Positions 4,453 to 45,490 of a stretch of 64,000 nt of DNA are shown here, piece by piece. Below the pieces are notes generated by a model. It did not search any database, was not told the origin of the DNA, and worked only from the letters and a program-made list of their open reading frames with translations. A program made the position numbers and the translations under genes. Origin of the DNA: a virus; the IMG/VR virus record IMGVR_UViG_3300045988_103857; one strand, written 5' to 3'. Position 1 is the stretch's first letter. Every line of letters begins with the position of its first letter.

Positions 4453-4465
4453 TATTAAGAATTAT

Positions 4466-4541
4466 TGGGGGTTGGCGAAGCGGATTAACGCATCGGTCTT
4501 TGACACCGACATTTTCATCAGTTCAAATCTGATACCCCCAG
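4466..4541 (+). tRNA. tRNA-Gln (anticodon TTG)
   Basis: Hand fold: acceptor TGGGGGT/ACCCCCA (U1:A72, G73). D arm GCGA..ACGC. Anticodon stem TCGGT/ACCGA with loop CTTTGAC. T arm ATCAG-TTCAAAT-CTGAT. The 7-nt variable region is unusual. Confidence 0.75.
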
Positions 4542-4549
4542 TAACATTC

Positions 4550-4786: not shown

Positions 4787-4859
4787 GGAAACTTAGTTCA
4801 GTTGGCAGAACGGTCGGCTCATAACCGACAAGTCACAGGTTCGAGTCCTGTAGTTTCCA
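4787..4859 (+). tRNA. tRNA-Met or Ile2 (anticodon CAT), elongator type
   Basis: Acceptor GGAAACT/AGTTTCC. D stem GTTC/GAAC. Anticodon stem GTCGG/CCGAC with loop CTCATAA. T arm ACAGG-TTCGAGT-CCTGT. Confidence 0.85.
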
Positions 4860-5549: not shown

Positions 5550-5621
5550 CGGAATGTAGCTCAGTGGTAGAGCAATGGCATTGTAAGCTATGTGCCGCAG
5601 GTTCGATTCCTGCCTTTCCGA
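5550..5621 (+). tRNA. tRNA-Thr (anticodon TGT)
   Basis: D arm GCTC-AGTGGTA-GAGC. Anticodon stem ATGGC/GCTAT with loop ATTGTAA. T arm GCAGG-TTCGATT-CCTGC. The acceptor CGGAATG/CTTTCCG has one mismatch. Confidence 0.75.
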
Positions 5622-19967: not shown

Positions 19968-20393
19968 ATGAGTTGTAAAAATGTTTGTAAGCTCTGCAAC
20001 CATCTTGTAATCAGCCAAGCCGTTGCGTTTACAGGAGGTAATCTTGTAATCACACTTCCAGCAGGCAGTTACAATAACGGAGAGAAATATTGTATTGTTG
20101 TTGCACAAAGCATACCGGAAACAACCACAATTTCTGCTCCGGTAGTAATCCAGGTAGGCACGGGAACAACCTTGTATCCATTACAGAATCGTTGCTGTGC
20201 ACAGGTTACGGCTTGCGGAATAAGAACCAGAACGAAGTACGCAACCAGAGTAGCTACAAGTGCAACTGGCGGAGTATTCAAGATGTTAGGAAATCCAGCT
20301 TGTAGTCCGAGTAACAATTTGACAGCAATTAATGGTACAGCCCCAACAACAGACACACCTGTTACACAGGCTGCCAGAAAGGGGGCAATGTAA
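19968..20393 (+). CDS. Cys-containing hypothetical protein
   Basis: GAGAGG SD. MSCKNVCKLCNH... 141 aa. No family recognised. Confidence 0.6.
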   Translation: MSCKNVCKLCNHLVISQAVAFTGGNLVITLPAGSYNNGEKYCIVVAQSIPETTTISAPVVIQVGTGTTLYPLQNRCCAQVTACGIRTRTKYATRVATSATGGVFKMLGNPACSPSNNLTAINGTAPTTDTPVTQAARKGAM

Positions 20394-21025
20394 TGCATAA
20401 AGTTGCAATGGAAATGGGAAAATGGGCCATGGAGAAAGCTAAAGCACATGGCTTTGATAATCTCAGTGCTCAAGACTGGGACGATTTGAAAGACTGCATG
20501 GAAGCTGTAAAGTGTGCGATTTGCGCAGATAAGGATTACAGAATCGTAGAAGCTATGGACGAATGCGAACAGGAAGAGAAATATCTTGGACGCATGGGAT
20601 ATGACAGATATCGTTATGCAAACGGCAGATTTGCACCAAAAGGCAGAGGAAGTCGTATGGGATACAAGCCATATCTGTACATGGAAGATGATGACTGGAT
20701 GAATGAATATCTGAATAATCCAGAATTTGAACGCAATATGTACCGCATGGGATATCACCCAGAATATTCAGACAGGAATATGGGGAATGATGGCATGAAT
20801 CGTCAGCAGTCCAGATATGGTGAAACCTACGACAGGTACAGTGAGAATCGCAGACATTACCATGATTCCAAAGACGCTGAATCAAAGAGAAAAATGGATG
20901 ATTCCATGAAAGAGTACACAGAAGATATCATCCGCAATATGAAAGAAATGTGGGACGATGCAGACGCATCAATCAGACAGCAGATGAAAACTGATCTGAC
21001 ACGTTTCATACAGCAGATGAACTGA
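20393..21025 (+). CDS. charged repeat protein (three RMGY motifs)
   Basis: The start overlaps the upstream stop. GRMGYDRYRY, SRMGYKPYLY and YRMGYHPEYS repeats. Rich in D/E/R/K/M/Y. Confidence 0.6.
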   Translation: MHKVAMEMGKWAMEKAKAHGFDNLSAQDWDDLKDCMEAVKCAICADKDYRIVEAMDECEQEEKYLGRMGYDRYRYANGRFAPKGRGSRMGYKPYLYMEDDDWMNEYLNNPEFERNMYRMGYHPEYSDRNMGNDGMNRQQSRYGETYDRYSENRRHYHDSKDAESKRKMDDSMKEYTEDIIRNMKEMWDDADASIRQQMKTDLTRFIQQMN

Positions 21026-21041
21026 ATATGAAATGAATTTT

Positions 21042-21074
21042 GCCCTTGTTACAGGAATGTAGCAGGGGCTTTTT
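21042..21074 (+). terminator. intrinsic terminator closing the 19.1-21.0 kb cassette
   Basis: Stem GCCCTTG/CAGGGGC followed by T5. Confidence 0.6.
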
Positions 21075-21093
21075 AGTTATGGAGGTACATAAT

Positions 21094-21255
21094 ATGCCGA
21101 GAAAAAAAGCGGAAGTCAAAATTAAAATGATTTGTGAGAAATGCGGAAAACCACAGAAACCAAGTGCTGACAAATCAACAACTAATTGGAATGTATATGA
21201 CTGTCATGAAAAATGTGAATGTGGTGGAAAATTCGTAATGAAATTCGAGGATTGA
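21094..21255 (+). CDS. small zinc-ribbon protein
   Basis: GGAGG SD. CEKCGK...CHEKCECGG provides two CxxC-like pairs. Confidence 0.5.
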   Translation: MPRKKAEVKIKMICEKCGKPQKPSADKSTTNWNVYDCHEKCECGGKFVMKFED

Positions 21256-21257
21256 TT

Positions 21258-21608
21258 ATGGAAAATTTGACTGTAAATATTTTAGGAACCGAGTACAAAA
21301 TATATTTCAGGAATGAAAAAGACGACGATTTACTTGATGGAAAAGGCAGAGATGGATACACGGATATGTCCGCGCACGAAATTATAGTGTGTAACAAAAA
21401 AGATGATTGTGAATTAATAGATTACGAAAATTGGAAGAAAAACATTCTACGTCATGAAATTGTTCATGCTTTTTTATTTGAAAGTGGACTTGATTCTTCG
21501 TCTGCCAATTTTTATGGAGCATGGGCTACGAACGAAGAAATGGTTGATTGGTTTGCAATTCAATCTCCAAAGATTTTTAAAGTATTCCAAGAACTTGATT
21601 TAATTTGA
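21258..21608 (+). CDS. HExxH metallopeptidase-like protein
   Basis: ILRHEIVHAFLFESG contains HExxH. 116 aa. Confidence 0.55.
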   Translation: MENLTVNILGTEYKIYFRNEKDDDLLDGKGRDGYTDMSAHEIIVCNKKDDCELIDYENWKKNILRHEIVHAFLFESGLDSSSANFYGAWATNEEMVDWFAIQSPKIFKVFQELDLI

Positions 21609-21626
21609 AAAGGATGGTGATAAGCC

Positions 21627-22013
21627 ATGATAAGACAATTTTACATGAACGGCGACCTATGGAGAGTGCAGTTCGTATCTCCGCACGACAGCGTGTTAAT
21701 TGATCGTACAGGCAATAGAACGCTTGGGGTATCGGATTATTCCACCCATATTATTTCAATCGCAAATAACCTGCACGGAGAGCTTCTGAATCGTGTGTTT
21801 ATTCATGAGTTAGGGCATTGCGTAATGTTTAGCTACGGTCTATTACCAGAACTTCATCACATGGTCAAGAAACGGTATTGGGTGGATGCAGAAGAATGGT
21901 GCTGCAATCTTCTGGCCGACTATTCTTGTTTCGTGATTGGCACAGCTAGAGATATTTTAGGAAACCAGTTCACATATGTAGCTCCTATCGGGGCAGAAAG
22001 GATGATTGCATAG
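21627..22013 (+). CDS. HExxH metallopeptidase-like protein (second, divergent)
   Basis: VFIHELGHCVMFSYG contains HExxH. 128 aa. Confidence 0.55.
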   Translation: MIRQFYMNGDLWRVQFVSPHDSVLIDRTGNRTLGVSDYSTHIISIANNLHGELLNRVFIHELGHCVMFSYGLLPELHHMVKKRYWVDAEEWCCNLLADYSCFVIGTARDILGNQFTYVAPIGAERMIA

Positions 22014-22256
22014 ATGGCAAAAGCAGAAAACACAGTTATTTTTGATGGAATCAAGTACAATCCCGGTGATGAATTGCCAGATTTAGGCAGTTGGGTGTGT
22101 ACAGATGCAAAAGGCATGGTTCGTGATTACGAAGGGCTTTCAAAGGACGTATCGAAGCTTCCACATTATGTAGAGAGTGGTTCTTCGGCGTTGTGCCTTG
22201 ATACTTCTGAATTATACGAATATCACAAACCTACCGATACATGGTACAAACTGTAA
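22014..22256 (+). CDS. hypothetical protein
   Basis: The start abuts the upstream stop. 80 aa. Confidence 0.5.
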   Translation: MAKAENTVIFDGIKYNPGDELPDLGSWVCTDAKGMVRDYEGLSKDVSKLPHYVESGSSALCLDTSELYEYHKPTDTWYKL

Positions 22257-22269
22257 AGGAGAATCGCAT

Positions 22270-24174
22270 ATGGCATTAACAGCAAAGAAAGTATATGCAA
22301 TATTAAAACGCCAGATTTCCGATATGGAAGCAAAAATAAAAACGCCTATTATTTACCGTGGTACAGTTGCAACCGCTGATTTGCTTCCATTAAATCCAGA
22401 TATCGGAGATATGTACAATATCGAGTCTAAATCTGTCTATGGCGAAGCAGGAATGAACGTGGCATGGAACGGTGTAGTATGGGATACTATGGGCGCCCCG
22501 ATTGATATGTCGCTTTACATTAAATCAAGCGAATTGGCGGATTGGGTAAAACAGCAGAACAAGCCGACATATACGGCTGAAGAAGTTGGAGCGTTGCCGG
22601 CTGATACAAAGATTCCAAGCAAAACTAGTGACTTGCAGAATGACTCTGGATTCTTGACTAAAATTCCAGACAATTATCTTTCTGGAACAGACAAAACTCT
22701 GAGCGTATCTGGAAAAGCTGCTGACGCAAAGGCTGTTGGAGATAAAAACGTAGAATTATTAGCTGATATATCAAATAAGTTAAATAAGAACCAAGGCTCG
22801 GAGAACTCTGGCAAGATTGCCGGAATTAACGAATCTGGTGATATTGTTCCAATGTTTCCAGTAAGCGTAGATTACAACGAAGAAACAAATTGTCTTGAGT
22901 TTGGCTCTGATCAGAAAATGGAACTGAACCAAGGTATCGGTCTTGATAGCACTCTCACAAAGACGGGATATGCCGCTGATGCGGGCGTAGTTGGAGAAAT
23001 AACTAATTCACTAAAGGAAGATATAGGTGACTTAGAAAATTTAAAGTATAGAGAATTATATGATAATCTTTTTTATGATTTTTTTGATATTGCCACTAAT
23101 AAAAGCGGTAATATTAATGAATATGGAAATGCTCAGCATATATTTGTAGAGAATGTCTATTCAAATGGTGCCAAACTTGAAAGTGGAAATTATTTAGTTG
23201 CGCTCAAACTTACAAATATCAGTTTAAAAAGACAGGTTAATGTGGACGCAAGTTTTGCACTTTGTATTATAGACGGTTGGAATAAAAAATACTTGGGAGA
23301 TATTCAATATTATAATGGTGAAAAAGAGTTATTTGTTTATTCCATTATAAATTTTACAAATGACAATAATATAAAAGTTTCTCCAGCTTTAATTTTAAAT
23401 GGTGGCTTTGAGTCAAACTCCGAATATTCCTTTGATGTAGATACCATTGCTATCATAAAAAATAACACAAATGGATTACCTGAATCAATCTTTCATTATG
23501 GAAATAACAAGATATATCCTGTTTTTAATATGTATGGCAATCTATCTAATTTTAAAAATGCCTATATTCTGAATAAAAAATTGGTTGCTAATGACACAAG
23601 TGGAACATCCGATGTTTCGGCTCAATATACTGTTGCGAAGATGGGAAATACTGTAAATAAAATTATGTTAAAAGGTATTTTTGATACAAATACCACAATA
23701 GCTATTATTACAGAGCCTAACGGAATGACAAATGTTACAGATGTTACAAATAGGTCTATTCATGTTACGTTTAGTGCAAATGGTTGCTCGGTTGGTTATT
23801 TTGATAATAAAGCATTAACGAACATAAAAAATATATCTTGGGATGGAGACTATATAGGCAAAGAAGTAACTATTGGCTTTGAAATAAGTGGAAATGTTAT
23901 TACAGTTTATCTGCCAAACGGAAACACTTTAACGGTAACTAATGAAAAGTTAATATCTTGTGGTGGAAAATATGCTTTGTGGGAGCATTATATGGGAGGG
24001 CTTAATAAAAGAATTTTCCATTCTGCACAATTTACAAAAATTTATGCAGAGGATGCTGACGGAAATGTTCTTTGTGATGATTTTAACAGAGAAAATGGTA
24101 GCATTGGGATTTCTCCGCAAGGTTATGTTTATGCTCAATTTACAAATGAAAATCAAACTGGATGGACATTTTAA
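22270..24174 (+). CDS. fibre / receptor-binding-type protein with a mosaic C-terminus
   Basis: AAGGAG SD. The N-terminal IYRGTVATADLLPLNPDIGDMYNI...VAWNGVVWDTMG and SGKAADAKAVGDK motifs are typical of Gram-positive phage fibres. The C-terminal ~380 aa are strikingly AT-rich and N/I/K-rich. Confidence 0.65.
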   Translation: MALTAKKVYAILKRQISDMEAKIKTPIIYRGTVATADLLPLNPDIGDMYNIESKSVYGEAGMNVAWNGVVWDTMGAPIDMSLYIKSSELADWVKQQNKPTYTAEEVGALPADTKIPSKTSDLQNDSGFLTKIPDNYLSGTDKTLSVSGKAADAKAVGDKNVELLADISNKLNKNQGSENSGKIAGINESGDIVPMFPVSVDYNEETNCLEFGSDQKMELNQGIGLDSTLTKTGYAADAGVVGEITNSLKEDIGDLENLKYRELYDNLFYDFFDIATNKSGNINEYGNAQHIFVENVYSNGAKLESGNYLVALKLTNISLKRQVNVDASFALCIIDGWNKKYLGDIQYYNGEKELFVYSIINFTNDNNIKVSPALILNGGFESNSEYSFDVDTIAIIKNNTNGLPESIFHYGNNKIYPVFNMYGNLSNFKNAYILNKKLVANDTSGTSDVSAQYTVAKMGNTVNKIMLKGIFDTNTTIAIITEPNGMTNVTDVTNRSIHVTFSANGCSVGYFDNKALTNIKNISWDGDYIGKEVTIGFEISGNVITVYLPNGNTLTVTNEKLISCGGKYALWEHYMGGLNKRIFHSAQFTKIYAEDADGNVLCDDFNRENGSIGISPQGYVYAQFTNENQTGWTF

Positions 24175-24277
24175 TCAATTAACAAAAGAGGGCTTTAGTT
24201 AACCATTAAAACTGCAGGCACAACGCATTTAATTATTATAAACAGTTGACAATAAATAACAGATATGGAGGAATCAC

Positions 24278-26041
24278 ATGAAAACGCAGAAAACAAAAGG
24301 ATTTTATGACCGTGAAAATGATACGGTACATATTTTTATCCCACCTGCTCCGACAGAATCGGAGAGAGGTGGAATTACTGCAAAAGAAAAAACAACGGAA
24401 TCTCTTGAGGTTGCAGTTGACCCAGGAACAGGAAAAGCGTATGTGGCGCTGGACGCTACTCTTTCCAAAACAGGAGAAGCGGCAGACTCAGCAGAAGTAG
24501 GGAAAAAGATTAGTGTCCTAAACGACATTATCTGCGGCACACCACATACAGATACCGTAGAAGAATATCTTAACCGCCAGAAAACAGGCGTGGTGTACCA
24601 GTCAAAAGAGTGGAAATCAGCGGTAAATCCGACAACTACGATTGAGAAGTTAGGCGTAAACAAGCTGATTCCATACGAACCGTCCACAGATACCGTAGAG
24701 GGTGCAGACGGATATGCGAACCGTCCAGAATTTCAGTGGTGGTACGGAAATTATATCCGCCACGACAATGAAGACTATGAACTGACCGCAATCGAGGGCG
24801 AGGATGGATATTCAGAGGCTGACACCGTAGACGTGTGCTCTTTCGGGCCTATGTTCTATTACCGGAAAGAAAATAAAGGAGATTATTTCCTCTGGTCTTG
24901 GTCTGATACACCGCATGAGGAACTGGGATTAAAGCCATTTCAGAAGAATGCTGATGGCTCCGTACCTGCTTATTGGCTTCTGTCTGCATTTCCATCTGTA
25001 GCCGGTTCTGACGGATTGCCACACTCGCAGCCCGGAAAGAAGATTTTAAGAAACCAGAGTTACGGAAATATCCATCAGAATTACCAGAGGAAAGGAGCCG
25101 GATACTTAGGATGCGGCAAAGAACGTCAGACTTTCTGTATGATTTTCAATGCGATCAAAGGCGGGCAGAAGAGTTCCAGAAAGATTTCACAGGGTGTAAA
25201 CAACTGGAACTTCCAGCTCGATGCAGCAGAGCAGAGGTCGGAGAAGGCAACTTACTTCCCGGTAACAGCAGCACAGGCAGCAAACCTGGAAGTTGGATTA
25301 TGTGTTTCTGTTGGATATGGTTCTAACAACAATGGTGCAGTAAATAAAGACCGCGGAGTCGGAACTATGCATTCCTACGCGGACGACGTAAAGATTCTTC
25401 GTATTGAAGACCTTGCAAGCGGAAACAAAGCAGTGTATCTGGATATTTCAGAAGGATTTACTACAGTACCTGTAAAACTTACGGATACCTTAAATGCGCC
25501 GATCACAATGTCTTCTATGCACATTCACACTGGCGAGACGAAGAAAGTAATTGGAAAGCATGACGGTGCAGCTGTATCAAACACATCAGCAAGACATCCA
25601 TACAGAATTCAGGGTGTCGAATATCAGGTAGGTGCTTATCATGTAGCTGCAAATACAGTGATGGTATTCAAAAGTGATTACAGCAAAGATGTATATATCC
25701 GTGAAAAAGGAACTGCATGGAGTGATAACGAGAATATTGTCAAGAGTACATATAAACTTGTTGGAAACATACCTGCCAGTGCAGATGGCAAAGGAAGTGA
25801 CTGGTGGGTTGGTGATGTAGAAATTGATGAAGAAACAGGTGCATGGTGGCCAATAGCCGCAACCGATTCTTCTGATCGAGGAATGGGAAGCAGAGTTTAC
25901 GCCGGAGGAACAGCCACATCTGGAACCAGAGAATCACTTGAAGCCGGGCTCCTCTGGGATGGGGCGTTCTCCGGTTCCGCGTTCGTGGGTTGCTGGGGCG
26001 GGCTCTGGAATGACTGGTGGAGCTTCGGCTCCTGCGATTAA
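24278..26041 (+). CDS. DGR variable (target) protein, fibre-like N-terminus with a C-terminal variable region
   Basis: The last 99 nt (VR) match the downstream TR except at TR adenines. The N-terminus shares the S..GEAADSAEVGKK fibre motif. The C-terminus is AGLLWDGAFSGSAFVGCWGGLWNDWWSFGSCD. Confidence 0.85.
   Translation: MKTQKTKGFYDRENDTVHIFIPPAPTESERGGITAKEKTTESLEVAVDPGTGKAYVALDATLSKTGEAADSAEVGKKISVLNDIICGTPHTDTVEEYLNRQKTGVVYQSKEWKSAVNPTTTIEKLGVNKLIPYEPSTDTVEGADGYANRPEFQWWYGNYIRHDNEDYELTAIEGEDGYSEADTVDVCSFGPMFYYRKENKGDYFLWSWSDTPHEELGLKPFQKNADGSVPAYWLLSAFPSVAGSDGLPHSQPGKKILRNQSYGNIHQNYQRKGAGYLGCGKERQTFCMIFNAIKGGQKSSRKISQGVNNWNFQLDAAEQRSEKATYFPVTAAQAANLEVGLCVSVGYGSNNNGAVNKDRGVGTMHSYADDVKILRIEDLASGNKAVYLDISEGFTTVPVKLTDTLNAPITMSSMHIHTGETKKVIGKHDGAAVSNTSARHPYRIQGVEYQVGAYHVAANTVMVFKSDYSKDVYIREKGTAWSDNENIVKSTYKLVGNIPASADGKGSDWWVGDVEIDEETGAWWPIAATDSSDRGMGSRVYAGGTATSGTRESLEAGLLWDGAFSGSAFVGCWGGLWNDWWSFGSCD
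25942..26040 (+). repeat. DGR variable repeat (VR)
   Basis: Ungapped alignment to 26141-26239 (offset 199). 18 mismatches, 17 of them opposite TR adenines. Confidence 0.9.
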
Positions 26042-26076
26042 AAAGGCCCTTAGGGGTGAATTTTCCGAAGGAAAAG

Positions 26077-26090
26077 AGGGGGCTTCCCCT
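26077..26090 (+). promoter_or_regulatory. GC-rich hairpin downstream of VR (candidate DGR target-recognition element)
   Basis: AGGGG-GCTT-CCCCT lies 36 nt after the VR end. DGR targets often carry a GC hairpin or cruciform 3' of VR. Confidence 0.35.
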
Positions 26091-26140
26091 TAATTCCTTC
26101 CAAACACATACAAAAATAAAAGCATAAGGACTCATGGTGC

Positions 26141-26239
26141 AGCCGGGAACCTCAGGAATGGGACGAACTCCGGTTCCGCGTACGTGAATTGCAGGAACGG
26201 GCTCTGGAATGACAGGTGGAACTACGGCTCCTGATATTA
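26141..26239 (+). repeat. DGR template repeat (TR)
   Basis: Non-coding copy of VR. It contains 25 A residues, 17 of which differ in VR. The TR reading frame is rich in AAC/AAT/TAC codons. Confidence 0.9.
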
Positions 26240-26434
26240 TTTATATCAAAACCAGTATTATTTGCATCATGTTTCACACCTGAAAAGGGTGTAGCCGAAA
26301 GGTTCTTTACGCATAAGCGTTAAAATAAGCAAGAAAGGCCAGCTGAAAGCCGGGGACGGCAAGTAAGGAATACAGTGTATGAGACTGTATTCGGGGCTAG
26401 TAGAAAAACCGGAAACCCTCTTTAAAATAATCGA

Positions 26435-26581
26435 ATGAAAAGATATTGCAAGGCCATTGATATAACAGACCGCGGATTAATCAGCACAGCGGTATATAAA
26501 TGTCTGAAGAAAAAGTACAAAAGAAATGATGTACTGAGATTACTTAGTACATATACGACTTTGGATGTTAATCAAATTTAA
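26435..26581 (+). other. RT N-terminal segment (48 codons), ending at an in-frame TAA
   Basis: MKRYCKAIDITDRGLISTAVYKCLKKKYKRNDVLRLL... resembles the RT-0/N-terminal region of DGR RTs (A...K..KR..v..f). It is in the same frame as 26624-27610. TAA at 26579-26581. Confidence 0.5.
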
Positions 26582-26623
26582 TGCATTTTCAGAAGAAACG
26601 GAAAGAATGCCATTCGTTTTCTG

Positions 26624-27610
26624 GTGGAAGCAGTGATTGATGATATCCAGAATGAAATCATTAACTGGGACATTAAATTCCCTCCGGTATGGTACCGGGA
26701 AAAAGTAGACCCATCGTCCGGGAAAATCCGTAGAATCGGAATCCAGAATATAAAGCATCAGTTGTATGATTACATAGCAGTTATAGCATTGCAGCCTATT
26801 CTGAAACGCATTGGAGAGCATCAGTACGCTTCCATCAAAGGGCGTGGGACTCTAAAAGGTGCAAGGGACGTAAGAAGATGGTTGAGAAACCATAAGCTCA
26901 CATTCGTTGCTCAGGCAGACGTAAAGAAATGTTATGAGAGCATAGATAGGGATAAGCTTATGCAATTCCTGGAATGCCACATCAAGAACGATCTGCTGAT
27001 TAAATTGATCAGAAAATTGATTTACAGTTTTGAGAAAGGCCTGAGTATAGGCTCATATCTTAGCCAGTTTCTCTGCAATCTGTATATGAGCATCCTGTAT
27101 CATCATGTTGCCGAAGGAATGTACCGTACCAGAAAGCACCGGAATGGATGCAGTGAGCGGATTAATCTTGTTAAGAAGCAAACGTTTTATATGGATGATA
27201 CGCTGTTTGCCGGAACAAATAAGAAAGACATCAAGAAAGCAATGAAAATGTTCATTAGAAAAGCAAAAGATATGGGGCTGACCATTAAGAACACCTTCCG
27301 TATCTACAAAATAACTGGAACATTCGTGGATATGATGGGATACCGGATATATCAGCATAAAATGACTGTTCGCAGAAGAAACTTCCGTAGAATCAGAAGG
27401 GCATATAAAAAGGCCCTAAAATGTTATGAGACACATAAACCAATTCCATTTAAACTGGCAAAACGATGTAGTAGTTTCTATGGATTCCTGAAGAATACAA
27501 ATAGTAAGCACATCCGGAAGAAATGGAAAGTAAAGAAGATTATGAAGATATGTAAAGGGGTGATAAAACGTGAAGAAAGTAAAATTTACACAGAAACAGC
27601 CATTGCTTAA
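26624..27610 (+). CDS. DGR reverse transcriptase (core)
   Basis: YMDD active-site motif (FYMDDTLF). DGR-specific IGxxxSQ motif (SIGSYLSQFL). Adjacent to the TR. The track start is a GTG; the frame is open upstream to the TAA at 26579. Confidence 0.9.
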   Translation: MEAVIDDIQNEIINWDIKFPPVWYREKVDPSSGKIRRIGIQNIKHQLYDYIAVIALQPILKRIGEHQYASIKGRGTLKGARDVRRWLRNHKLTFVAQADVKKCYESIDRDKLMQFLECHIKNDLLIKLIRKLIYSFEKGLSIGSYLSQFLCNLYMSILYHHVAEGMYRTRKHRNGCSERINLVKKQTFYMDDTLFAGTNKKDIKKAMKMFIRKAKDMGLTIKNTFRIYKITGTFVDMMGYRIYQHKMTVRRRNFRRIRRAYKKALKCYETHKPIPFKLAKRCSSFYGFLKNTNSKHIRKKWKVKKIMKICKGVIKREESKIYTETAIA

Positions 27611-27941
27611 GACGTTTGATTCCGGAGACGGAATTTATGTATTTATCTGTGCAAACGAAAAAGAAATCACAGAAGAAATACAGCAAGGAAATATATCAGA
27701 AGAATCACAGAGCCACACAGAAACAGTATACGAATATGACTGTAATGAATTTGTGACATCTGCAGATCGGCTTCCTGATATTGAGCAGAAGCCAAAAAAG
27801 TATCTTGACTATGTTCCAGAAACTAAAAAGAGCACAGAACAGCTTCTGGCAGAACAGTCAGAACAGATCACAGCGCAGGCAAAACAGATTGAGATGCTAA
27901 AAGAGTGCCTGTTAGAAATGAGTGAACAGGTTTATGCGTAG
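27570..27941 (+). CDS. hypothetical acidic protein
   Basis: GTG start after an AAAGGGGTGA SD. Overlaps the RT 3' end by 41 nt. Acidic, so not Avd-like. Confidence 0.5.
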   Translation: MKKVKFTQKQPLLKTFDSGDGIYVFICANEKEITEEIQQGNISEESQSHTETVYEYDCNEFVTSADRLPDIEQKPKKYLDYVPETKKSTEQLLAEQSEQITAQAKQIEMLKECLLEMSEQVYA

Positions 27942-27981
27942 GAATTTAATCATTATGTTATTAAGCAAAGGAGATAAAGAA

Positions 27982-28128
27982 ATGATGGCAAAATTATGGG
28001 TTACAGAAATCTTAAGCAAAGAAACAATTGAAGAAGCAAAAGAAGAATACAAGAGAACACCGAGACTCCTGAAAGAAAAGGTAAAAAAGCTTCTCGTTGA
28101 TGCAGGCATGGAGGAAATTACTGAATAA
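27982..28128 (+). CDS. small protein, 48 aa
   Basis: AAAGGAG SD. MMAKLWVTEILSKETIEEAKEEYKRTPRLLKEKVKKLLVDAGMEEITE. Confidence 0.45.
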   Translation: MMAKLWVTEILSKETIEEAKEEYKRTPRLLKEKVKKLLVDAGMEEITE

Positions 28129-28284
28129 ATGACGAAGCTTCAGATCATTTCAAAACTCTGGCCTGTAATCTATGATATGCAATTAGCTACGAAGCCCTGG
28201 GAAGAGATAGACAAAGAGCTAGATATTCTGGAGTATAAATGCCGGAAATATGTGGATACAGACGATTTGGAGGAAATGCCATGA
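28129..28284 (+). CDS. small protein, 51 aa
   Basis: ATG overlaps the upstream TAA. The stop overlaps the next ATG. Confidence 0.4.
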   Translation: MTKLQIISKLWPVIYDMQLATKPWEEIDKELDILEYKCRKYVDTDDLEEMP

Positions 28285-28679
28285 GAGGATTAAAACGGCA
28301 AAAACAAACAATATACTGGTCCAGAGCAACAGAAGACCTTGACGGGATAGACACAATCAAAACGTACCAAAAGCCAGAATTATATCACTTCTCCGTATCT
28401 GCGACCGCCGGAACGCCAGAGGAATTATCCGCCGGTTATATCCCGGACTACGACAGGTATATCACAAACTTCGACCGCAGCTTCAAGCCACAGACCGCCG
28501 ATGTATTCTGGATTGATCGCAAGCCGGAACTGACCGGTGCAGGCGAACTTGTTTTAGGTGAAGACGGAGAGCCTACAGTACCGCCAGATTACCGTCTGAA
28601 AAAGATTCTCGATACCCAGAAAGGCAATGTGGCACGATATGGCATCAAGTATATAGGAGATGGTTCAGATGGCGAATAA
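28281..28679 (+). CDS. head closure / head-tail adaptor protein
   Basis: 132 aa. Its position ahead of the gp10-like gene and its size fit phage head-closure proteins. Confidence 0.5.
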   Translation: MRGLKRQKQTIYWSRATEDLDGIDTIKTYQKPELYHFSVSATAGTPEELSAGYIPDYDRYITNFDRSFKPQTADVFWIDRKPELTGAGELVLGEDGEPTVPPDYRLKKILDTQKGNVARYGIKYIGDGSDGE

Positions 28680-29187
28680 GACTATCAAAATGGAATTGTC
28701 GCATAAATCTATACAGGACACAATAAAGCAGCTCAGAGCGTATCAGAAGTCACTTGCAAGCAAGAATGAAGAGTTTGTCCGCAGGCTGGTAGAACTTGGA
28801 ATCCCGGTCATAGATGAAAACATAGCATTGGCACAAGGCGATTCTGACAAAAACCATAACACCTATATCAGAATCAATAACTTTGGCGATTATTCTCAGG
28901 CGACGCTTGTGTGTGAAGGCTCTGACCTCTTGTTCATTGAGTTCGGGTCTGGCATTTACTACAACACTCCTGCAGGAACCAGCCCACATCCTAAGGGGCA
29001 AGATTTCGGTTACACAATCGGTTCATACGGACAGGGGAACGGAAAGAATGAATCGTGGGTTTATTTTGCCGATTCTGGCGAATGGGTACGCTCTTACGGT
29101 ACCGAAGCCACCATGCCGGTATATAAGGCAAGCGTAGAAATCATGCAGAGCATCAGAAAAATTGCAAAAGAAGTGTTTGCATCATGA
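28669..29187 (+). CDS. HK97 gp10-like neck/tail-completion protein
   Basis: ATLVCEGSDLLFIEFGSGIYYN...P.PKG resembles the HK97 gp10 family core. Confidence 0.55.
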   Translation: MANKTIKMELSHKSIQDTIKQLRAYQKSLASKNEEFVRRLVELGIPVIDENIALAQGDSDKNHNTYIRINNFGDYSQATLVCEGSDLLFIEFGSGIYYNTPAGTSPHPKGQDFGYTIGSYGQGNGKNESWVYFADSGEWVRSYGTEATMPVYKASVEIMQSIRKIAKEVFAS

Positions 29188-29283
29188 AAGTTAATACCTG
29201 ATAATACTGAATAATACCTCTGTCTTTGATATACTATAACATATAAAAGCATCTACCTGAGCGGTGGGTGCTTTTTTCATGCA
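29185..29283 (+). promoter_or_regulatory. conserved cassette copy 2: TAATAC-repeat block, -10 TATACT (29230-29235), intrinsic terminator
   Basis: 35 nt identical to 11799-11833. CTGAAT (29207-29212), 17 nt, then TATACT. The terminator follows. It shares the GCTTTTTTCATGCA end. Confidence 0.6.
29249..29277 (+). terminator. intrinsic terminator inside cassette copy 2
   Basis: 9-bp stem GCATCTACC/GGTGGGTGC (with G:U pairs), loop TGAGC, then T6. Confidence 0.7.
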
Positions 29284-29311
29284 AAAAAACATAGAAAAGG
29301 AGAATGTAAGC

Positions 29312-29950
29312 ATGTTAGTAGAAACAATGATTATCAAAAAAGTAGAAACGAGCATTGTCACAAGCCTAGATGTCGCAGAAACTTTTGAAAAAGAACATAA
29401 AAGAGTATTGCAGGACATTAGAAATTTAGGATGCAGTGAAGAATTCGGACAGCACAATTTCGTGCTTTCCTCATACACAAGCATCCAGAATAAAAAACAA
29501 CCTATGTACTGCATGACGAGAGATGGATTTACGCTTCTTGTTATGGGATACACTGGCGAAAAAGCCATGAAGTTCAAAGAAGGATACATTCGCCAATTCA
29601 ATGCAATGGAAAAAGTTCTTTTAGGAAAAATCAGAGAACGAGACAAAGGCATTGCAGTAAGACAAGCGTTGACCAATGCACTTAAAGAATCTCAAGAAAA
29701 CGAGAGAATGCACGGTCATGCATATTCGACATACACAGATATGGTATATCGTACATTGTTTGGCAAAACTGCAAAACAACTTAGAGAAGAAAAAGAAATT
29801 TCTACTAAAGACAATCTAAGAGATTTCCTTACCGAAGAAGAGCTAAAAGCTGTCCAGTCAAAGGAAATGCTTGTTAGTGGTTTGATTGACTGCGGATGGG
29901 GATATTCTCAAATAAGAGATTTCCTTAATACCAGTCTCAGAATATGTTAG
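29312..29950 (+). CDS. Rha-family phage regulatory protein
   Basis: VTSLDVAETFEKEHKRVLQDIRNL...MTRDGFTLLVMGYTGEKAMKFKEGYIRQFNAME matches the Phage_pRha pattern. Confidence 0.8.
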   Translation: MLVETMIIKKVETSIVTSLDVAETFEKEHKRVLQDIRNLGCSEEFGQHNFVLSSYTSIQNKKQPMYCMTRDGFTLLVMGYTGEKAMKFKEGYIRQFNAMEKVLLGKIRERDKGIAVRQALTNALKESQENERMHGHAYSTYTDMVYRTLFGKTAKQLREEKEISTKDNLRDFLTEEELKAVQSKEMLVSGLIDCGWGYSQIRDFLNTSLRIC

Positions 29951-29970
29951 AACAGGCGGTGTGATATAAA

Positions 29971-30378
29971 ATGCCAGACACGATTAACAACCCAGTATCA
30001 GAAGTATTTTCTAGGTGGAGCAAAGATATTCAACCAACAGTCGGCAAAGGCAATTTTTCCATGGAAAAAAGCCAGACAATAGCATCTGGTAAAACAAAAT
30101 ACGCCAGATTGTTCATGATGGGGAATCCCACGCAGTCAACAAGTCTTGAAGGTCACGAATGCGCAACAGTTCTTTCATTTCAAACGGAAAGTTACGCATC
30201 TGGGACAAAGGCTTTATCGACTGCATACGAAATCGACAGCAAAAGTCATCAGGCTATGGTTTCGATGGGCTTTCGCCGGACATACGGGCCGGAAGAAGTC
30301 GCAAACTCCGAAAAGAGTTTCAAACGAATCATAAGCCGGTACAGCAGAATTTACACCGGGCAATTATTGGAAGTGTAA
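29971..30378 (+). CDS. putative tail terminator / tail completion protein
   Basis: 135 aa just upstream of the major tail gene. Assigned by position only. Confidence 0.4.
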   Translation: MPDTINNPVSEVFSRWSKDIQPTVGKGNFSMEKSQTIASGKTKYARLFMMGNPTQSTSLEGHECATVLSFQTESYASGTKALSTAYEIDSKSHQAMVSMGFRRTYGPEEVANSEKSFKRIISRYSRIYTGQLLEV

Positions 30379-32189: not shown

Positions 32190-35100
32190 ATGCCTGACAA
32201 CACAATAGATAGCCTTGCGATAGAGGTCAGCAGTAACGTATCAAATGCAAGTAAATCCATTGATGATTTATGCAATAAACTGAATCGCCTGAGCAGTCGT
32301 ATGTCTGAGAGCATCAAGTATCTCAGAGACTTTTCAGCTTCCGTCGGTACGGTCAACTCTGCTGTTCAAGCACTTAAATTGGACAGGCTTGATTTATCAA
32401 CGATAAACAGTCAATTGCAACAGTTTACGCAGTCCATGAGTGCGCTCGGTAGCCTGAACTTGAGAAACAACGGATTAAACTCATTCGTAAATGCAATCCG
32501 CAGATTGAACGAAACATTAAATTCCACAGGTGATGTGTCTGGAAAGATTCAGAGCATGATTTCTGAGCTATCCACGCTTGGCAGTATTCCAGACGTATCA
32601 AACAACGTGAACCGGTTTATTTCTTCGTTGGCAAGATTGGCGAATGCAGGCAGCTCTATTGATGCAGTTACATCAAAACTTCCAAATCTTGGTGAAGAAC
32701 TTAGAAAAATCATAGTTTCATTCTCTGGAATAGGTAATATTTCTCAGCCAATTAATACATTTGTTCAGTCAATATCTCAGTTGGCAAATGCAGGAGATAA
32801 AACCGGAAAGACAGCAACTCAGCTTAATGATCTGGCAAATAGCCTAAAATCATTCTTCCAGACGATGAGTACCGCTCCTAGAATCAGTAGCAGTACAATT
32901 CAAATGACTCAGGCTGTTGCTCAGTTGGCAAATTCTGGGGCGAATGCCGGTAGAGCGGCAAGGTCTACTGCAAGTGCATTTTCAGGATTGGGACAGGGTG
33001 CGGCCACTTCGACAGGAAAGGTCAGAAAACTTGCAAACGCCGTTGGAAGTGTAGGAAGCAAGGCAAAGAAAAGTTTGCCTAGCATCATGTCTCTGGTGGC
33101 AAAATTCTGGACGTTGAAATTTGTTGTTGGAAAATTTGGAAGCGCAATTGAAAGTTCCATGAATTTTCTCGAAGATTACAACTACTTTCAAGCGGCGTTT
33201 CGTCAGGTAGCAGATAAAGCAGGAGAAACTTGGTCAGAGGCAGGCTATGATTCTGCGGAAGCTTATGCAAATTCATTTAGTAATAGAGCTAGAGAACTTA
33301 CATCCAAAATGTCTGGGTTCAATGTTTCCGATAATGCGATTTTGACCGCAAATAAATCAGGTAAATCACTCGGTATGGACCCGTCCATGCTCTTGAATTA
33401 TCAAGGCCAGTTTGCACAGTTGTCGTCCTCCATGGGAACAACTTCTGAACAGGCATTAAAACTGTCGAATGCACTGACTATGATCGGTGCTGACCTTGCA
33501 TCTGTTAAGAATCTTGATTTTAGCACAGTTTATGAGAACTTATCCTCTGGATTAGTAGGTATGAGCCGTGCTGTAGACAAATATGGTGCAAACATTCGTG
33601 TGGCAAACTTACAGCAATATGCGGCAAATCTTGGTATACAAACGTCTGTTTCTAATATGGACCAGGCAAGTAAGGCAATGCTGAGAACGATAGTAATACT
33701 GGATTCCACCCGGTACGCATGGGCGGATATGGCAAATACGATAAATATGCCAGCCAACCAGTTACGTATACTTCGTGCAAACTTAGTATCCTGTGCCAGA
33801 GCATTAGGTAACATCTTTATGCCTGTAGTTGCGGCAGTGCTTCCATACATCAATGGTCTTGTGATCGCATTCCAGAGACTTTTGACATACATTGGTTCGC
33901 TTCTTGGAGTTGATACCAAAATCGGAAAAATGTTCGGTTCTATCGGTGGTGGAAGTGAAAATCTCTCGAATGCACTTGATTCCATAGACGATTCTGGAAT
34001 TTCGGACGTAAATGATGCTACAAAAGATACAGACAATAATCTGAAAAATGCAACCAAGAGCGCAAAAAAATTAAAACAGTTCCTCGCATCCTATGATGAA
34101 CTTGAAATTATGAGCAAAGACGATAGTTCTCTGTCAGACCTTGCAAATTCTAAAATTAAAACGCCAAAAATTGACACATCTGCAATTGATGCAGGAATCC
34201 TCAACGATGCACTGGATAAACTTTTGAACGAATACCAGAAGAAATGGGATGCTGCCTACAACTCCATGGAAAACAAGGCTATGGCGTTCGCTAATAAGGT
34301 CACAGACACATTTAAGAAACTTGCAAAAGCCGCAGAACCTACCACAAAAGCACTGAAAAATCTTTGGAACAATGGATTGAAGCAGCTCAGAGATTTCACA
34401 TGGACAGCATTAAAAGATTTCTGGAATCATTTTTTAGTTCCGCTTGGCAAGTGGACGCTTGGGGAAAAAGGATTACCACGACTAATCAATGCTTTTAACG
34501 ATTTTCTTGTGAAAATCAACTGGGACAAAATCAATGCTTCCCTTGTACAGTTATGGGGTGTATTAGAGCCATTTGCTGAGAATGTCGGAACTGGCTTACT
34601 TGATTTCTTCGATGATTTCTTTGACAAGGCGGCAGATGGAGTTAATAAACTTCCTGATCTGATTGACAGGTTCAAAGAGTTTATCGCAGCATTCTCACCG
34701 AAGCAAGCACAGTCTATCGGATATTTCCTCGGACAGCTCCTGACAGCTTTTGTAGCATTTAAAGGGCTTACATGGTTTGGAAGTATTTTCGGTAAAGATG
34801 GAGCGATAGGCAAAGGAATCACCATGTTAGCAACGCATCCATATGCTTCGATAGCGGTAGGATTAGGCCTTACCGTTGCTGCACTTGATAAATTTGGAGT
34901 AATTGATGTTGATTGGGACGGGTTATGGACAAGAATCGGGAATCTCAAAGACGTAATTGTGAATTTCATCAAAAACATTGATTGGGATTCGTTAATAAAA
35001 ACAATCGGCGATGTATGGGATGTATTCCAGCCATTTGCTGAAGGATTCGCAGATGGATTTATCAGCTTTTTCGATATAATGCTGAACGATATTGGTGCCC

Positions 35101-37166
35101 CACTGATTAATACATTAGTAAGCGTCTTAGATGCTTTCGCAAAAGCCTTAGGAAAGCTTGACGATAAGCAGATAGAAGCTCTTGGCGAAGCTCTAGCACG
35201 GTTTTTTATTATAAGGGGAAGCATTAAGTTTGCCCGAAATATATACAATGTAGTCAGTTCTATCAGCGCACTCAGAACAATCTTCGGTGGGTTAGGAACG
35301 GTTCTTTCCACAGCCAGTGGTGCATTGCAGACATTCTTTGGCTCTGGACTTGGTTCTACGCTTGCGGCAGGATTCGCAGACAGCATGGTTGTCTTAGGAA
35401 CTGCAATGGCAGGTTTCAACCTCGGAAAGTGGATAAGTGTTAATCTGTTCGGCGGCGAAGATAAAACTTTTGGAGAGTTTTTGGAAGATAATGTATTCGG
35501 ATATCAAAAAGGAGATTTTACCGGTGCTATCAACGAATGGATGAAAGATATATTCGGAGTCGGTAATAAACTTACAGAGGATGATTTAAAGGTATTTCAG
35601 GAATATGAAGATGCTATTCTAGGTTTGGTTCACGCAAGCCAGATTTCAGGCGAACAAGCATATCCTTTATTAACATTCCTTTCCGAATTGAAAGATAACG
35701 GATATAGCACAGAACAGGCGTTGTTTGAACTTGAACTCAAACTCAATAATCTTGGAGTTTCATCAGAGGACTTCGAGAATGCGATAGCAGGAGTAAACAA
35801 ACCAGTCAAAGACCTTGGAGATACAGCGGAAACATCCTCTAATCAGTTTTCAAATATGGCTGATCGGATTAACAATGTGTCGTTTGAGGATATCTCAGAA
35901 CAGCTTACAGGATTCCAGACGCTTATCCAGACCGTTGACTTTGCAACTCTGGTAACAGATACGGCAAACGCAATTGATGAGATGGGCGGCATCTGGGAAA
36001 ATGGAAAACAGATTCTCGGAGAAAAAGCATTACAGATTTATCAGGAAATTTCAAAGGGATTAGAACCGGATGATAACGGCTACTATACTTTAGCAAACGG
36101 ACAGATGGTGCAGTTTGGAAAAGGTATTTCTGATTATGAAAGCACTCTACAAAGTACAATGGATTCAACTTTACAGGGGGCAATCAACGGCGTTCTGGAT
36201 AACAATTCTGGTTTTGAATTAGTCACAGAACTCGGAAAGAATCAGATTCTTGCCGTAGGTAGTGGGATTGAGCAAAACGGCAGTAAAGTCACTGAAAAGC
36301 TTAACTCAACAATTCAATCATCTGCGAAAGGTGCAGAAGAAACTGCGAAATCAAGCGGCAAAACCCTTGGAAGCAACATTGCAGAGGGATTACAGACTGG
36401 AATTAACGGGAAGAAAGAAAGCACAAAGACTTCGATTCTTGATCTAATGAATAACAGCGTAAAAGCCCCTGCACAGGAAGCAGTAGACTCCCATTCTCCG
36501 TCCAGATGGTTCAAGCAGCTTGCAGAGTACTGCGGTCAAGGATTCCGAAACGGATTAGAGCCGGGCTTTTCTGCGTCGTTCACATGGTTCGGAAGAATCC
36601 GAAGCAGAATCAGCAATTCCATTGGAAACCTGTATAATATCGGTTGGAACTCTATTATTGGCTTAAATAATGGAATTGTAGGCGCGGCACAACAGCTTTA
36701 TGCAAATGTGCAAAAAATCGCACAAAATATATCAAATACGTTCCGCAAAGTTCTTAAGATTCATAGCCCGTCGCAGGTAATGATGGAACTCGGTGGATTT
36801 ACCGTTGAGGGATTCCAACTCGGTATGCAGAATATGCTTCCGAAAGTTGAATCCACCATCAATGATATAAGCGCCGAAGTGCAAAAAATTAATACACCAA
36901 CCGCAGACATTATCACAAAGAGTGCATCCTATCAGGAAATAAAGAGCAGAATGTCAGTTGATACAGATGATTTTGTGGATGATATGCGAAAAGAAATCAT
37001 GGCAATCAGCAGTAACACGTTTGACAATAATCAGATGATCGGGCAGGCGGTCAAAAACGCTCTGAACGGTATGGCAATATATGCAGACGGGCATCTGATT
37101 GGGTATCTGAAAGAAGAAAATCAGCAGTTCAGAAACCGTAATGGCTACGGACTGTTTGAAGGGTAG
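32190..37166 (+). CDS. tail tape measure protein
   Basis: 1658 aa. Helical and hydrophobic repeats. Position after the G/GT chaperones. Confidence 0.9.
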   Translation: MPDNTIDSLAIEVSSNVSNASKSIDDLCNKLNRLSSRMSESIKYLRDFSASVGTVNSAVQALKLDRLDLSTINSQLQQFTQSMSALGSLNLRNNGLNSFVNAIRRLNETLNSTGDVSGKIQSMISELSTLGSIPDVSNNVNRFISSLARLANAGSSIDAVTSKLPNLGEELRKIIVSFSGIGNISQPINTFVQSISQLANAGDKTGKTATQLNDLANSLKSFFQTMSTAPRISSSTIQMTQAVAQLANSGANAGRAARSTASAFSGLGQGAATSTGKVRKLANAVGSVGSKAKKSLPSIMSLVAKFWTLKFVVGKFGSAIESSMNFLEDYNYFQAAFRQVADKAGETWSEAGYDSAEAYANSFSNRARELTSKMSGFNVSDNAILTANKSGKSLGMDPSMLLNYQGQFAQLSSSMGTTSEQALKLSNALTMIGADLASVKNLDFSTVYENLSSGLVGMSRAVDKYGANIRVANLQQYAANLGIQTSVSNMDQASKAMLRTIVILDSTRYAWADMANTINMPANQLRILRANLVSCARALGNIFMPVVAAVLPYINGLVIAFQRLLTYIGSLLGVDTKIGKMFGSIGGGSENLSNALDSIDDSGISDVNDATKDTDNNLKNATKSAKKLKQFLASYDELEIMSKDDSSLSDLANSKIKTPKIDTSAIDAGILNDALDKLLNEYQKKWDAAYNSMENKAMAFANKVTDTFKKLAKAAEPTTKALKNLWNNGLKQLRDFTWTALKDFWNHFLVPLGKWTLGEKGLPRLINAFNDFLVKINWDKINASLVQLWGVLEPFAENVGTGLLDFFDDFFDKAADGVNKLPDLIDRFKEFIAAFSPKQAQSIGYFLGQLLTAFVAFKGLTWFGSIFGKDGAIGKGITMLATHPYASIAVGLGLTVAALDKFGVIDVDWDGLWTRIGNLKDVIVNFIKNIDWDSLIKTIGDVWDVFQPFAEGFADGFISFFDIMLNDIGAPLINTLVSVLDAFAKALGKLDDKQIEALGEALARFFIIRGSIKFARNIYNVVSSISALRTIFGGLGTVLSTASGALQTFFGSGLGSTLAAGFADSMVVLGTAMAGFNLGKWISVNLFGGEDKTFGEFLEDNVFGYQKGDFTGAINEWMKDIFGVGNKLTEDDLKVFQEYEDAILGLVHASQISGEQAYPLLTFLSELKDNGYSTEQALFELELKLNNLGVSSEDFENAIAGVNKPVKDLGDTAETSSNQFSNMADRINNVSFEDISEQLTGFQTLIQTVDFATLVTDTANAIDEMGGIWENGKQILGEKALQIYQEISKGLEPDDNGYYTLANGQMVQFGKGISDYESTLQSTMDSTLQGAINGVLDNNSGFELVTELGKNQILAVGSGIEQNGSKVTEKLNSTIQSSAKGAEETAKSSGKTLGSNIAEGLQTGINGKKESTKTSILDLMNNSVKAPAQEAVDSHSPSRWFKQLAEYCGQGFRNGLEPGFSASFTWFGRIRSRISNSIGNLYNIGWNSIIGLNNGIVGAAQQLYANVQKIAQNISNTFRKVLKIHSPSQVMMELGGFTVEGFQLGMQNMLPKVESTINDISAEVQKINTPTADIITKSASYQEIKSRMSVDTDDFVDDMRKEIMAISSNTFDNNQMIGQAVKNALNGMAIYADGHLIGYLKEENQQFRNRNGYGLFEG

Positions 37167-44570: not shown

Positions 44571-45269
44571 TCAACTTATGTAATTTTCATATTTTTCTTT
44601 GATTTCTTTTGACCCATTCTGTCTTATCTGGACAATGTCCCCAGAATCCATGACGAAATTATCACCTGCCGACTGAATATGATCCATGTTCACCAGATAA
44701 CTCTGATGGCAACGTAAGAATCGCTTATCAGACAGCTTTTCTTCCAGATCGTTCAGCTTGCAAGTGGTCACGAAACATCGGTTATTTGTAGCGAAAATAT
44801 GGCAAACTCTTGCCTGACTTTCGACGTACTCAATTTCATCGTATTTGAGCCGGTTTATCTGCCTACGGAATTTGAACGTCAATGTTTCATCCCTCATCTG
44901 TGACAGAATCTCGTCAATAGCCCGGTATATTCTGCCGTATTCCTTGCCCTTGACCGCATACTGCATAGCGCCGACGTCAAACGCTTCTTGCAGATGAGAA
45001 TCGTCGGCTGTCCAGAATATAATCTTTCCATCATATCCAATATCCCGGAGCCGGTTCGCAATCTCCAAACCGTTCTCATTTTCCAGAATCATATCCAGTA
45101 CAATTACATCGTACCATTTACCCTCTTTCACATCTTCAACAAGCGGATAACCTGCCGAATACTCGCTAATTTCATACCGGTAATCTCCTTTGCGCCGCAA
45201 GAATCCCGATATGTGCTCTTTAAACAAGTCAACTTCAAGCTGATTATCGTCACATATGGCTATTCTCAT
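44571..45269 (-). CDS. orphan LytTR-family response regulator
   Basis: Start refined to MRIAICDDNQ.. after an AGGAGGG SD. Receiver motifs (DD.., VIVLDMIL, KIIFWTA). C-terminal LytTR domain (YVESQARVCHIF...FLRCHQSYLVNMDHI). No kinase gene nearby. Confidence 0.8.
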   Translation of the reverse strand: MRIAICDDNQLEVDLFKEHISGFLRRKGDYRYEISEYSAGYPLVEDVKEGKWYDVIVLDMILENENGLEIANRLRDIGYDGKIIFWTADDSHLQEAFDVGAMQYAVKGKEYGRIYRAIDEILSQMRDETLTFKFRRQINRLKYDEIEYVESQARVCHIFATNNRCFVTTCKLNDLEEKLSDKRFLRCHQSYLVNMDHIQSAGDNFVMDSGDIVQIRQNGSKEIKEKYENYIS

Positions 45270-45490
45270 ATGCGCGCCCTCCTTTCGTAGTCTCAATTTT
45301 GCCAAAATACGCAATGATTTTGACAGCACACACATTTTTCTTCCTGTTCGTGGTATTATTGTCCCACAAACAAAGTGTAGCACTTAAAATTGTTAGTGTA
45401 AAGCGCTAAAGTTTGACATAATTCGCAAAATATGGTTTCTGTGTCCGGGAGGATGTGTGGATAGAGAGACTGCCTGCGAGAACGACAGGC

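Follow-up and report, generated by a model that had tools for sequence, protein, structure and literature searches.

The 64,000-nucleotide stretch of viral DNA filed as IMG/VR record IMGVR_UViG_3300045988_103857 (the window) contains at positions 24278–27610 a diversity-generating retroelement (DGR), made up of a target gene that ends in a variable repeat (VR), a template repeat (TR), a structured spacer and the gene of a reverse transcriptase (RT). The reading that we favour, and consider likely, is that this is a genuine DGR of target–TR–RT layout that lacks Avd and carries an uncatalogued RNA, that it belongs to a lineage primed by the tail of this RNA and that the RT of the present copy is interrupted by a nonsense mutation. 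A first-pass annotation, made from the letters of the sequence, had described a complete DGR in the order target–TR–RT. The layout was borne out, as was the identity of the element, through an adenine-restricted repeat pair, hypervariation in the population and an RT with DGR motifs whose nearest solved relative is the RT of a Bordetella phage (bRT). The element cannot be called complete, because its RT frame is broken by a TAA at codon 49. All cis elements are intact in the window copy, and its VR was diversified in the past.

Repeat pair, target protein and variation among relatives

The target gene and the two repeats are placed as follows.

24278–26041 (+): target gene, 587 residues; variable N-terminal adaptor with the TLSKTGEAADSAEVG motif, conserved body, VR in the last ~33 codons
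25939–26043 (+): VR, the last 33 codons of the 587-residue target open reading frame (ORF); mutagenised span 25949–26025
26026–26043 (+): invariant 3′ end of the VR, resembling an initiation of mutagenic homing (IMH) element; discriminator CG at 26035–26036, TR equivalent AT
26138–26242 (+): TR, with 25 A in its core 99 nt; discriminator AT of its IMH counterpart (IMH*) at 26234–26235; predicted first templated base G26233

A gapless alignment pairs the VR (25942–26040) with the TR (26141–26239), which lies 199 nt further on, and leaves 18 mismatches over 99 positions. Seventeen of these mismatches fall at TR adenines, 17 of the 25 TR adenines being altered (A>T in eight, A>G in seven and A>C in two), and the sole mismatch at another base is T>G at 26036. 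This bias (Fisher's exact test, p = 3.2e-12) confirmed the pair as it had first been described; the 99 nt given for each repeat also held, with homology running slightly further, to 25939–26043 and 26138–26242. In the VR, codon positions 1 or 2 take 16 of the 17 A-changes. The TR frame had been noted as rich in AAC, AAT and TAC codons, and the count in the VR frame agrees (seven AAY, three AGG, two TAC, one GAC and one ACG); by our own count, the TR permits about 1.2e12 protein variants over 14 codons. A second VR-like match to the TR was not found on either strand of the 64 kb window.

Variation in the population was assessed in a set of 13 phage contigs, 91–97% identical to the window across the cassette, which were reached via the RT protein. 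The cassette had no match by megablast among 50,697 phage records. When genomes were scanned, the RT as a lone protein query gave nothing, and a profile scan succeeded. The TR is that of the window in nine of the 13 contigs and differs by 1–3 bases in the other four, and all 14 VRs (13 contigs plus the window) are distinct. Across the 14 genomes the VR columns vary at 21 of the 25 TR-A sites versus five of the 74 other sites, which is the A-site-restricted variation that the first-pass annotation had proposed as a check. The discriminator is fixed (CG in every VR and AT in every TR), in agreement with the IMH/IMH* difference suspected near the 3′ end. Between contigs L001 and L002 there are 14 differences in 3,333 positions, 12 of which lie within two 100 nt bins covering the VR. 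Of ∼40 more distant loci, all except L103 likewise carry a TR/VR pair with the A bias, placed immediately before the RNA motif described below.

The TRs of L006 (4704–4809) and L011 (4703–4808) carry an AA>GG change where their own VR also has G. This suggests an occasional return of mutagenised sequence into the TR, or VR-to-TR gene conversion.

The target protein falls into phrog_17147 (function unassigned; E = 1.9e-52) and has no match in Pfam. Among its more than 1,800 homologues the N-termini are interchangeable, the body is conserved and the C-terminal ∼30 residues are hypervariable; one 90%-identity cluster alone holds 575 member sequences. No match was obtained in a sequence-profile search against the PDB. 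The AlphaFold model has a mean pLDDT (predicted local distance difference test) of 75, with the VR segment below 50. Searched at full length against the PDB, it gave weak matches only, including the Thermus DGR variable protein TaqVP (5vf4; E = 0.03, probability 0.8, low TM-score), and no C-type lectin was matched in the PDB when the model was confined to the C-terminal domain. Among the BFVD predicted viral structures many gut-phage 'tail collar fiber protein' and crAss-like 'tail fiber' entries were matched, with E values down to 6e-53. The description of the protein as fibre-like is backed only by its structural likeness to predicted proteins annotated as tail collar fibre, and the C-type lectin fold expected for its VR-bearing domain is unconfirmed.

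The target shares a TLxxxGxAADAxxVG motif with the 665-residue protein encoded upstream (22177–24174, +). The latter has no Pfam domain; its counterpart in L001 and L002 (706 residues; L001 1633–3753) contains an SGNH/GDSL lipase domain. The upstream gene may encode a second, modular fibre.

The reverse transcriptase gene and its premature stop codon

The RT frame is divided by the stop codon as listed here, together with the tRNA genes of the window.

26435–26578 (+): RT codons 1–48, a conserved N-terminal segment with 18 of 48 positions invariant in the alignment
26579–26581 (+): premature in-frame TAA at RT codon 49, Tyr (TAC/TAT) in relatives
26582–27610 (+): rest of the RT frame, codons 50–391 and stop, with IGSYLSQ at 27047–27067 and YMDD at 27188–27199
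4465–4542, 4787–4859 and 5550–5621 (+): the three tRNA genes, for Gln(ttg), Met(cat) and Thr(tgt)

The RT matches Pfam RVT_1 (E = 8e-19) and a PHROG RT family (E = 1.7e-58 over residues 1–384, spanning the stop). IGSYLSQ, which fits motif 4 of the DGR clade ([LIV]GxxxSQ), and YMDD, of the catalytic YxDD form, are both invariant across 16 aligned homologues; the first-pass annotation had recognised them correctly and had taken the gene for a single ORF, overlooking the in-frame TAA at 26579–26581. Mechanically called ORFs across the frame are 26435–26581 (48 residues) and 26624–27610 (328 residues). The closest solved relative is bRT (8ub7, E = 5e-15), followed by group II intron RTs (2e-8). 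PADLOC returned generic RT-domain and DRT matches only (best 2.7e-19). That such generic models match at all favours an ordinary duplication beside an unrelated RT (retron, group II intron or defence RT), an explanation that is hardly credible against the adenine-specific divergence (p = 3e-12), the concentration of hypervariation at TR-A sites, the SQ motif, the proximity to bRT and a layout kept in more than 100 loci. The candidate RT classes were also rejected individually: for a group II intron there is no Rfam match in the window or the locus, and group II RTs are more distant than bRT; for a retron or a defence RT (DRT/Abi) the Rfam scans gave no retron RNA, the PADLOC matches were generic and a TR/VR pair is present.

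Of 20 close genomes, that of the window alone has the stop at codon 49. The other 19 each encode an intact 391-residue RT with Tyr at this codon (TAC or TAT). Intact RTs are found in every one of 50 complete related copies, among them 30 from more distant loci, and beyond the close 19 their length is 394–398 residues. A single base separates the two states (TAC>TAA, A at 26581), and the gene is otherwise 98% identical to its intact relatives with no decay outside the stop. Recoding or suppression of TAA was rejected, as TAA is in normal use as a stop (it is the commonest genuine one, terminating seven of 14 long window ORFs) and no suppressor is found among the three phage tRNAs. A restart at GTG 26624 would drop a conserved part of the protein, because the 48 residues upstream of the stop hold 18 family-invariant positions. 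To judge from the sequence, the stop reads most simply as a recent nonsense mutation. With a nonsense codon that 19 close relatives lack, the window copy most likely cannot diversify on its own and would be frozen unless an RT is supplied in trans.

It is unlikely that the DGR is instead complete and active, the TAA having been introduced in sequencing or assembly or being a rare allele caught in the consensus. The single-base difference in an otherwise undecayed gene speaks for this, as do the intact cis elements and the heavily diversified VR. The stop is nevertheless present in the given sequence, and it is not a shared artefact because it is seen in none of the 19 relatives. Consensus substitution errors are moreover uncommon in non-repetitive sequence of modern assemblies.

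Diversification of a cassette with a broken RT by the RT of a co-resident prophage or of a co-infecting phage is more doubtful still, and we give it little weight. Many co-circulating phages have a TR and spacer RNA that are 98–100% identical, Lachnospiraceae genomes commonly contain related RTs and the components of BPP-1 work in trans from plasmids (PMC3240598), all of which would allow it; the 64 kb window itself holds no second RT, one match to the RNA motif and one TR/VR pair.

Spacer RNA, predicted priming and target recognition

Four further elements lie between the VR and the RT gene.

26053–26062 (+): GGGGTGAATT box, GGGGnTGAAT in 123 of 154 related loci
26067–26100 (+): post-VR hairpin (DNA fold), inner GAGGGG-GCTT-CCCCTT at 26076–26091, outer GAAGGAA/TTCCTTC at 26067–26073/26094–26100
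26262–26433 (+): conserved structured RNA of ~172 nt with seven helices, a closing helix around three hairpins followed by three more hairpins
26424–26433 (+): RNA 3′ tail AAAATAATCG, predicted fold-back primer and IMH-pairing segment

The spacer from TR to RT measures 195 nt (26240–26434). It had been called structured from the start, which holds; the hairpin cited as an example is really located at 26368–26392, not 26370–26394. Plain compensatory changes occur in the hairpins between TR and RT in several clades of relatives. From a plain MAFFT alignment RNAalifold recovered no more than 17 pairs, since the hairpins of different clades were out of register; a covariance model (R1) was therefore built from one clade with a hand-drawn structure (seven helices, 39 pairs), followed by realignment. 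R1 matches the window at 26262–26433 (79.8 bits, E = 2e-17). Each of the 65 viral loci gave exactly one full-length match, which ends at the RT start, and of 37 bacterial genome loci (mostly Lachnospiraceae, with some Bacilli and Erysipelotrichaceae) 32 were matched. In the viral and genome sets, respectively, 94 and 91% of alignment cells are paired, compensatory changes touch 31 and 36 of the 39 pairs and the covariation scores are 0.54 and 0.62, compared with ∼0.18 for shuffles and ≤0.14 for slid controls.

The RNA has no counterpart in Rfam 15: no family was found at E ≤ 10 in 25800–26800 or at E ≤ 1 in nine diverse related loci, and the RT-associated motifs RT-1 to RT-19 (including RT-10) gave no match in the window or in nine relatives. 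Folded as a single sequence, TR plus spacer is not more stable than shuffles (z = −1.1), and the post-VR hairpin region reaches z = −1.6, so that fold energy alone says little. A pseudoknot between an invariant TAGTAG loop and an upstream CCTACT was dropped after inspection by eye because the partner varies without compensation.

The RT start lies ∼45–50 nt beyond the RNA motif in L103, L118 and L121. In clades with such a distant RT start, a GGTCT(T)A near the ribosome-binding site is complementary to TA(A)GACC, which is conserved halfway along the RNA; in L108 an A>G change retains a G–U pair. This may be a long-range pairing by which folding of the RNA is coupled to translation of the RT.

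The tail of the RNA was compared with the repeats in 31 diverse loci, 30 of which could be anchored. In the window, the reverse complement of AAAATAATCG is CGATTATTTT, which consists of the VR discriminator CG, the shared core ATT and the TR flank ATTT. The tail complement equals the TR flank at positions +3 to +6 after the core in 29, 27, 20 and 20 of the 30 loci, and the VR flank at the same positions in 22, 6, 6 and 7. Its discriminator is of VR type in all 30 loci and of TR type in 0–2; upstream of the discriminator it matches neither repeat. Discriminator and core co-vary as five types (CG-ATT, TG-ATT, CG-TTT, CT-TTC and CT-CTC), and within one clade L089 shows a paired change, C>T in the VR with G>A in the tail. 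The TR discriminator varies freely and never equals that of the VR in 34 tabulated loci.

By analogy with BPP-1, the tail is predicted to be both a fold-back primer and an IMH-pairing segment, with TR G26233 as the first base to be templated. For BPP-1 it was shown experimentally that the spacer bends back onto the 3′ end of the TR, that A56 of the spacer (Sp) primes and TR G117 is copied first, and that the RNA primer pairs better with IMH than with IMH* (PMC5703328). As the tail carries the VR-type discriminator dinucleotide, the hybrid of primer and complementary DNA (cDNA) would fit the VR and not the TR.

Downstream of the VR, GAGGGG-N4-CCCCT is found in 115 of 154 loci, always with a loop of 4 nt, and the GGGGTGAATT box lies ≤70 nt upstream of it in 104 of 154. 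In the window, GAGGGG-GCTT-CCCCTT lies 33 nt past the end of VR homology and has a stem of 6 bp, which shows no covariation because its sequence is invariant. BPP-1 uses a hairpin/cruciform for target recognition, with a GC-rich stem of 7–10 bp and a 4 nt loop located 4–34 bp after the VR (PMC3240598); the present candidate hairpin/cruciform may help target recognition.

The same CCCCT can pair either with the conserved GGGG of the GGGGTGAATT box or with the GAGGGG arm (for example in L028, L118 and L138), giving two mutually exclusive folds.

The mechanism that we infer for the lineage would then run as follows. An RNA spanning the TR and the ∼172 nt folded spacer would be made, and its 3′ tail would fold back on the TR 3′ flank and prime reverse transcription. 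Synthesis would begin at about TR G26233, adenines would be miscopied and the RNA-linked cDNA would replace the VR at the 3′ end of the gene for the 587-residue fibre-like protein. The direction of homing would be given by the VR-type discriminator of the tail, which would make the primer–cDNA hybrid fit the VR rather than the TR, and the conserved hairpin after the VR would assist recognition of the target.

Several points have to be set against this mechanism and the reading of which it is part. cDNA synthesis and priming are proposed for this lineage by analogy. The last two tail bases are mismatched to the TR, unlike the paired C55 and A56 in BPP-1, so that the exact priming nucleotide is uncertain, and the hairpin loops do not fit the GRNA consensus. 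The RNA alignments are biased towards pairing, having been made to follow the structure of the model, yet many pair types occur per position. The VR-bearing domain is modelled with low confidence, and the weak TaqVP match of the full-length target is absent from the domain-only model. The TAA, finally, is known from a consensus sequence only and could reflect a mistake of assembly or sequencing, or an allele carried by a minority.

A more far-reaching proposal, which we regard as a real possibility a little short of probable, is that this is an RNA-guided, Avd-less lineage in which the seven-helix RNA takes the place of the Avd scaffold, the tail acts as primer and IMH guide, two co-varying nucleotides set the direction of homing and a small acidic ORF behind the RT gene provides a lineage-specific cofactor.

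Accessory genes, genome context and relation to known systems

One further gene belongs to the locus, and had not been noted before.

27570–27941 (+): small acidic ORF, 123 residues, isoelectric point (pI) 4.6, overlapping the RT 3′ end by 41 nt

No Avd had been visible at first sight, and scans of all frames agree: no Avd or other four-helix-bundle family was found at E ≤ 1 with Pfam and NCBIfam models in 27 ORFs of 19968–30375, and none was among the best 25 of the 51 families matched at E ≤ 0.01 by 54 further window ORFs. Avd is present in about 74% of DGRs and is thus not universal. In a survey of 372 DGRs, 29% had no accessory gene and one whole lineage was without avd (Wu et al., PMC5758913).

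A homologue of the acidic ORF directly follows the RT gene in 117 of 154 related loci and overlaps its 3′ end wherever both coordinates could be read; these homologues have a median length of 114 residues and a pI of 4.05–4.82. Long forms, from larger phages, match phrog_1348 'tail fiber protein' (1e-7), with DUF4376 below threshold. The product may be an assembly factor for the target fibre or a non-Avd cofactor like CH1. CH1 is a small acidic protein (pI 4.7), a candidate accessory that occurs only in avd-less DGRs (PMC5758913), a likeness drawn by description; it has 160–169 residues as against the median of 114 in the present family, the long forms of which look tail-fibre-associated.

The genes for terminase (9687), portal (11882), head morphogenesis (13372) and major capsid protein (15152) are followed by an unknown block and then by the DGR, after which come Rha (29264), the tape measure (32190–37166), a 1,228-residue tail protein (37613) and the endolysin (43001). 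The cassette was earlier assigned to the head/neck block rather than to a place after the tail-tip genes, and it does lie between the head and tail modules, upstream of the tape measure. From this position the target would suit a neck, collar or head fibre. The phage is of siphovirus type and its relatives infect gut Lachnospiraceae: genomes that encode RTs of this family include those of Blautia, Dorea, Coprococcus, Hespellia and other Lachnospiraceae, and Blautia names are attached to homologues of both the target and the small ORF.

Some other genes of the window may be recorded here. The Rha-family regulator (29264–29950) is unusually placed, within the structural gene block and right after the DGR. 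Just downstream of the endolysin, on the opposite strand (44571–45383, −), lies the gene of a response regulator that combines a receiver domain (E = 4e-13) with a LytTR DNA-binding domain (E = 2e-15) and could tie a phage decision to a host or phage signal. A RecT recombinase (53571–54521) and an N6/N4 DNA methylase (58486–59319) are present. Among the 54 other ORFs mentioned above, one has a domain like that of Tad2 (Thoeris anti-defence 2; E = 3e-25). Three more encode HNH endonucleases that contain NUMOD motifs and another (57712–58428) a GIY-YIG protein; these four suggest several insertions of homing-endonuclease type.

Among experimentally studied systems, the DGR of BPP-1 (mtd–avd–TR–brt) resembles that of the window in its adenine mutagenesis between TR and VR, in the location of the VR at the 3′ end of a virion gene of receptor-binding type, in the IMH/IMH* difference and in a GC-rich hairpin with a 4 nt loop after the VR, which in the window is a candidate; the two RTs are mutually the closest solved relatives (8ub7). 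In both, spacer RNA folds back on the TR 3′ end and fits IMH better than IMH*, as a prediction in the case of the window. BPP-1 has avd and the window lacks it. The priming A lies 56 nt after the TR in BPP-1, whereas the predicted primer of the window lies ∼190 nt after it, at the end of a seven-helix RNA. The window further differs in the mismatch of the two terminal primer bases, a hairpin loop that is not GRNA, a target that is not Mtd-like and the nonsense mutation of its RT.

In layout the element resembles the Avd-less DGRs of Architecture A and Lineage 3 (Wu et al., 2018, PMC5758913), in which the target directly precedes the TR–RT core and genes for avd, HRDC and MSL are all lacking. 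RT-10 and other RT motifs are, like the RNA of the window, structured RNAs beside RT genes, and RT-10 sits between TR and the gene for the RT in BPP-1, with a proposed role in priming (Weinberg et al., 2017, PMC5737381); the window RNA differs from them in having no Rfam 15 match even at permissive E values. The DGRs of gut Firmicutes phages, for example those of Faecalibacterium prophages (PMC11792537), are likewise found in temperate gut phages and comprise TR, VR and RT. Their targets have DUF6273, Ig-like or Mtd-like domains, whereas the present target has no Pfam match. VR diversity was observed among cognate genomes of these prophages and often not within a single culture, pointing to inactive or temporarily inactive copies (PMC11792537).

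The element itself is ordinary: gut phages very commonly carry DGRs, and the target–TR–RT layout without Avd has been catalogued since 2018. The window copy is of interest as a natural RT-null allele among near-identical active relatives, which offers a clean comparison for the freezing of a VR on loss of its RT. The family is also large and diverse enough for mechanism to be read from covariation, here in a well-supported structured RNA that is not in Rfam. The relation between RNA tail, TR flank and VR discriminator predicts a priming junction and would explain IMH/IMH* directionality without Avd. If the RNA-guided proposal is true, the choice of target would be reprogrammable through a change in the tail.

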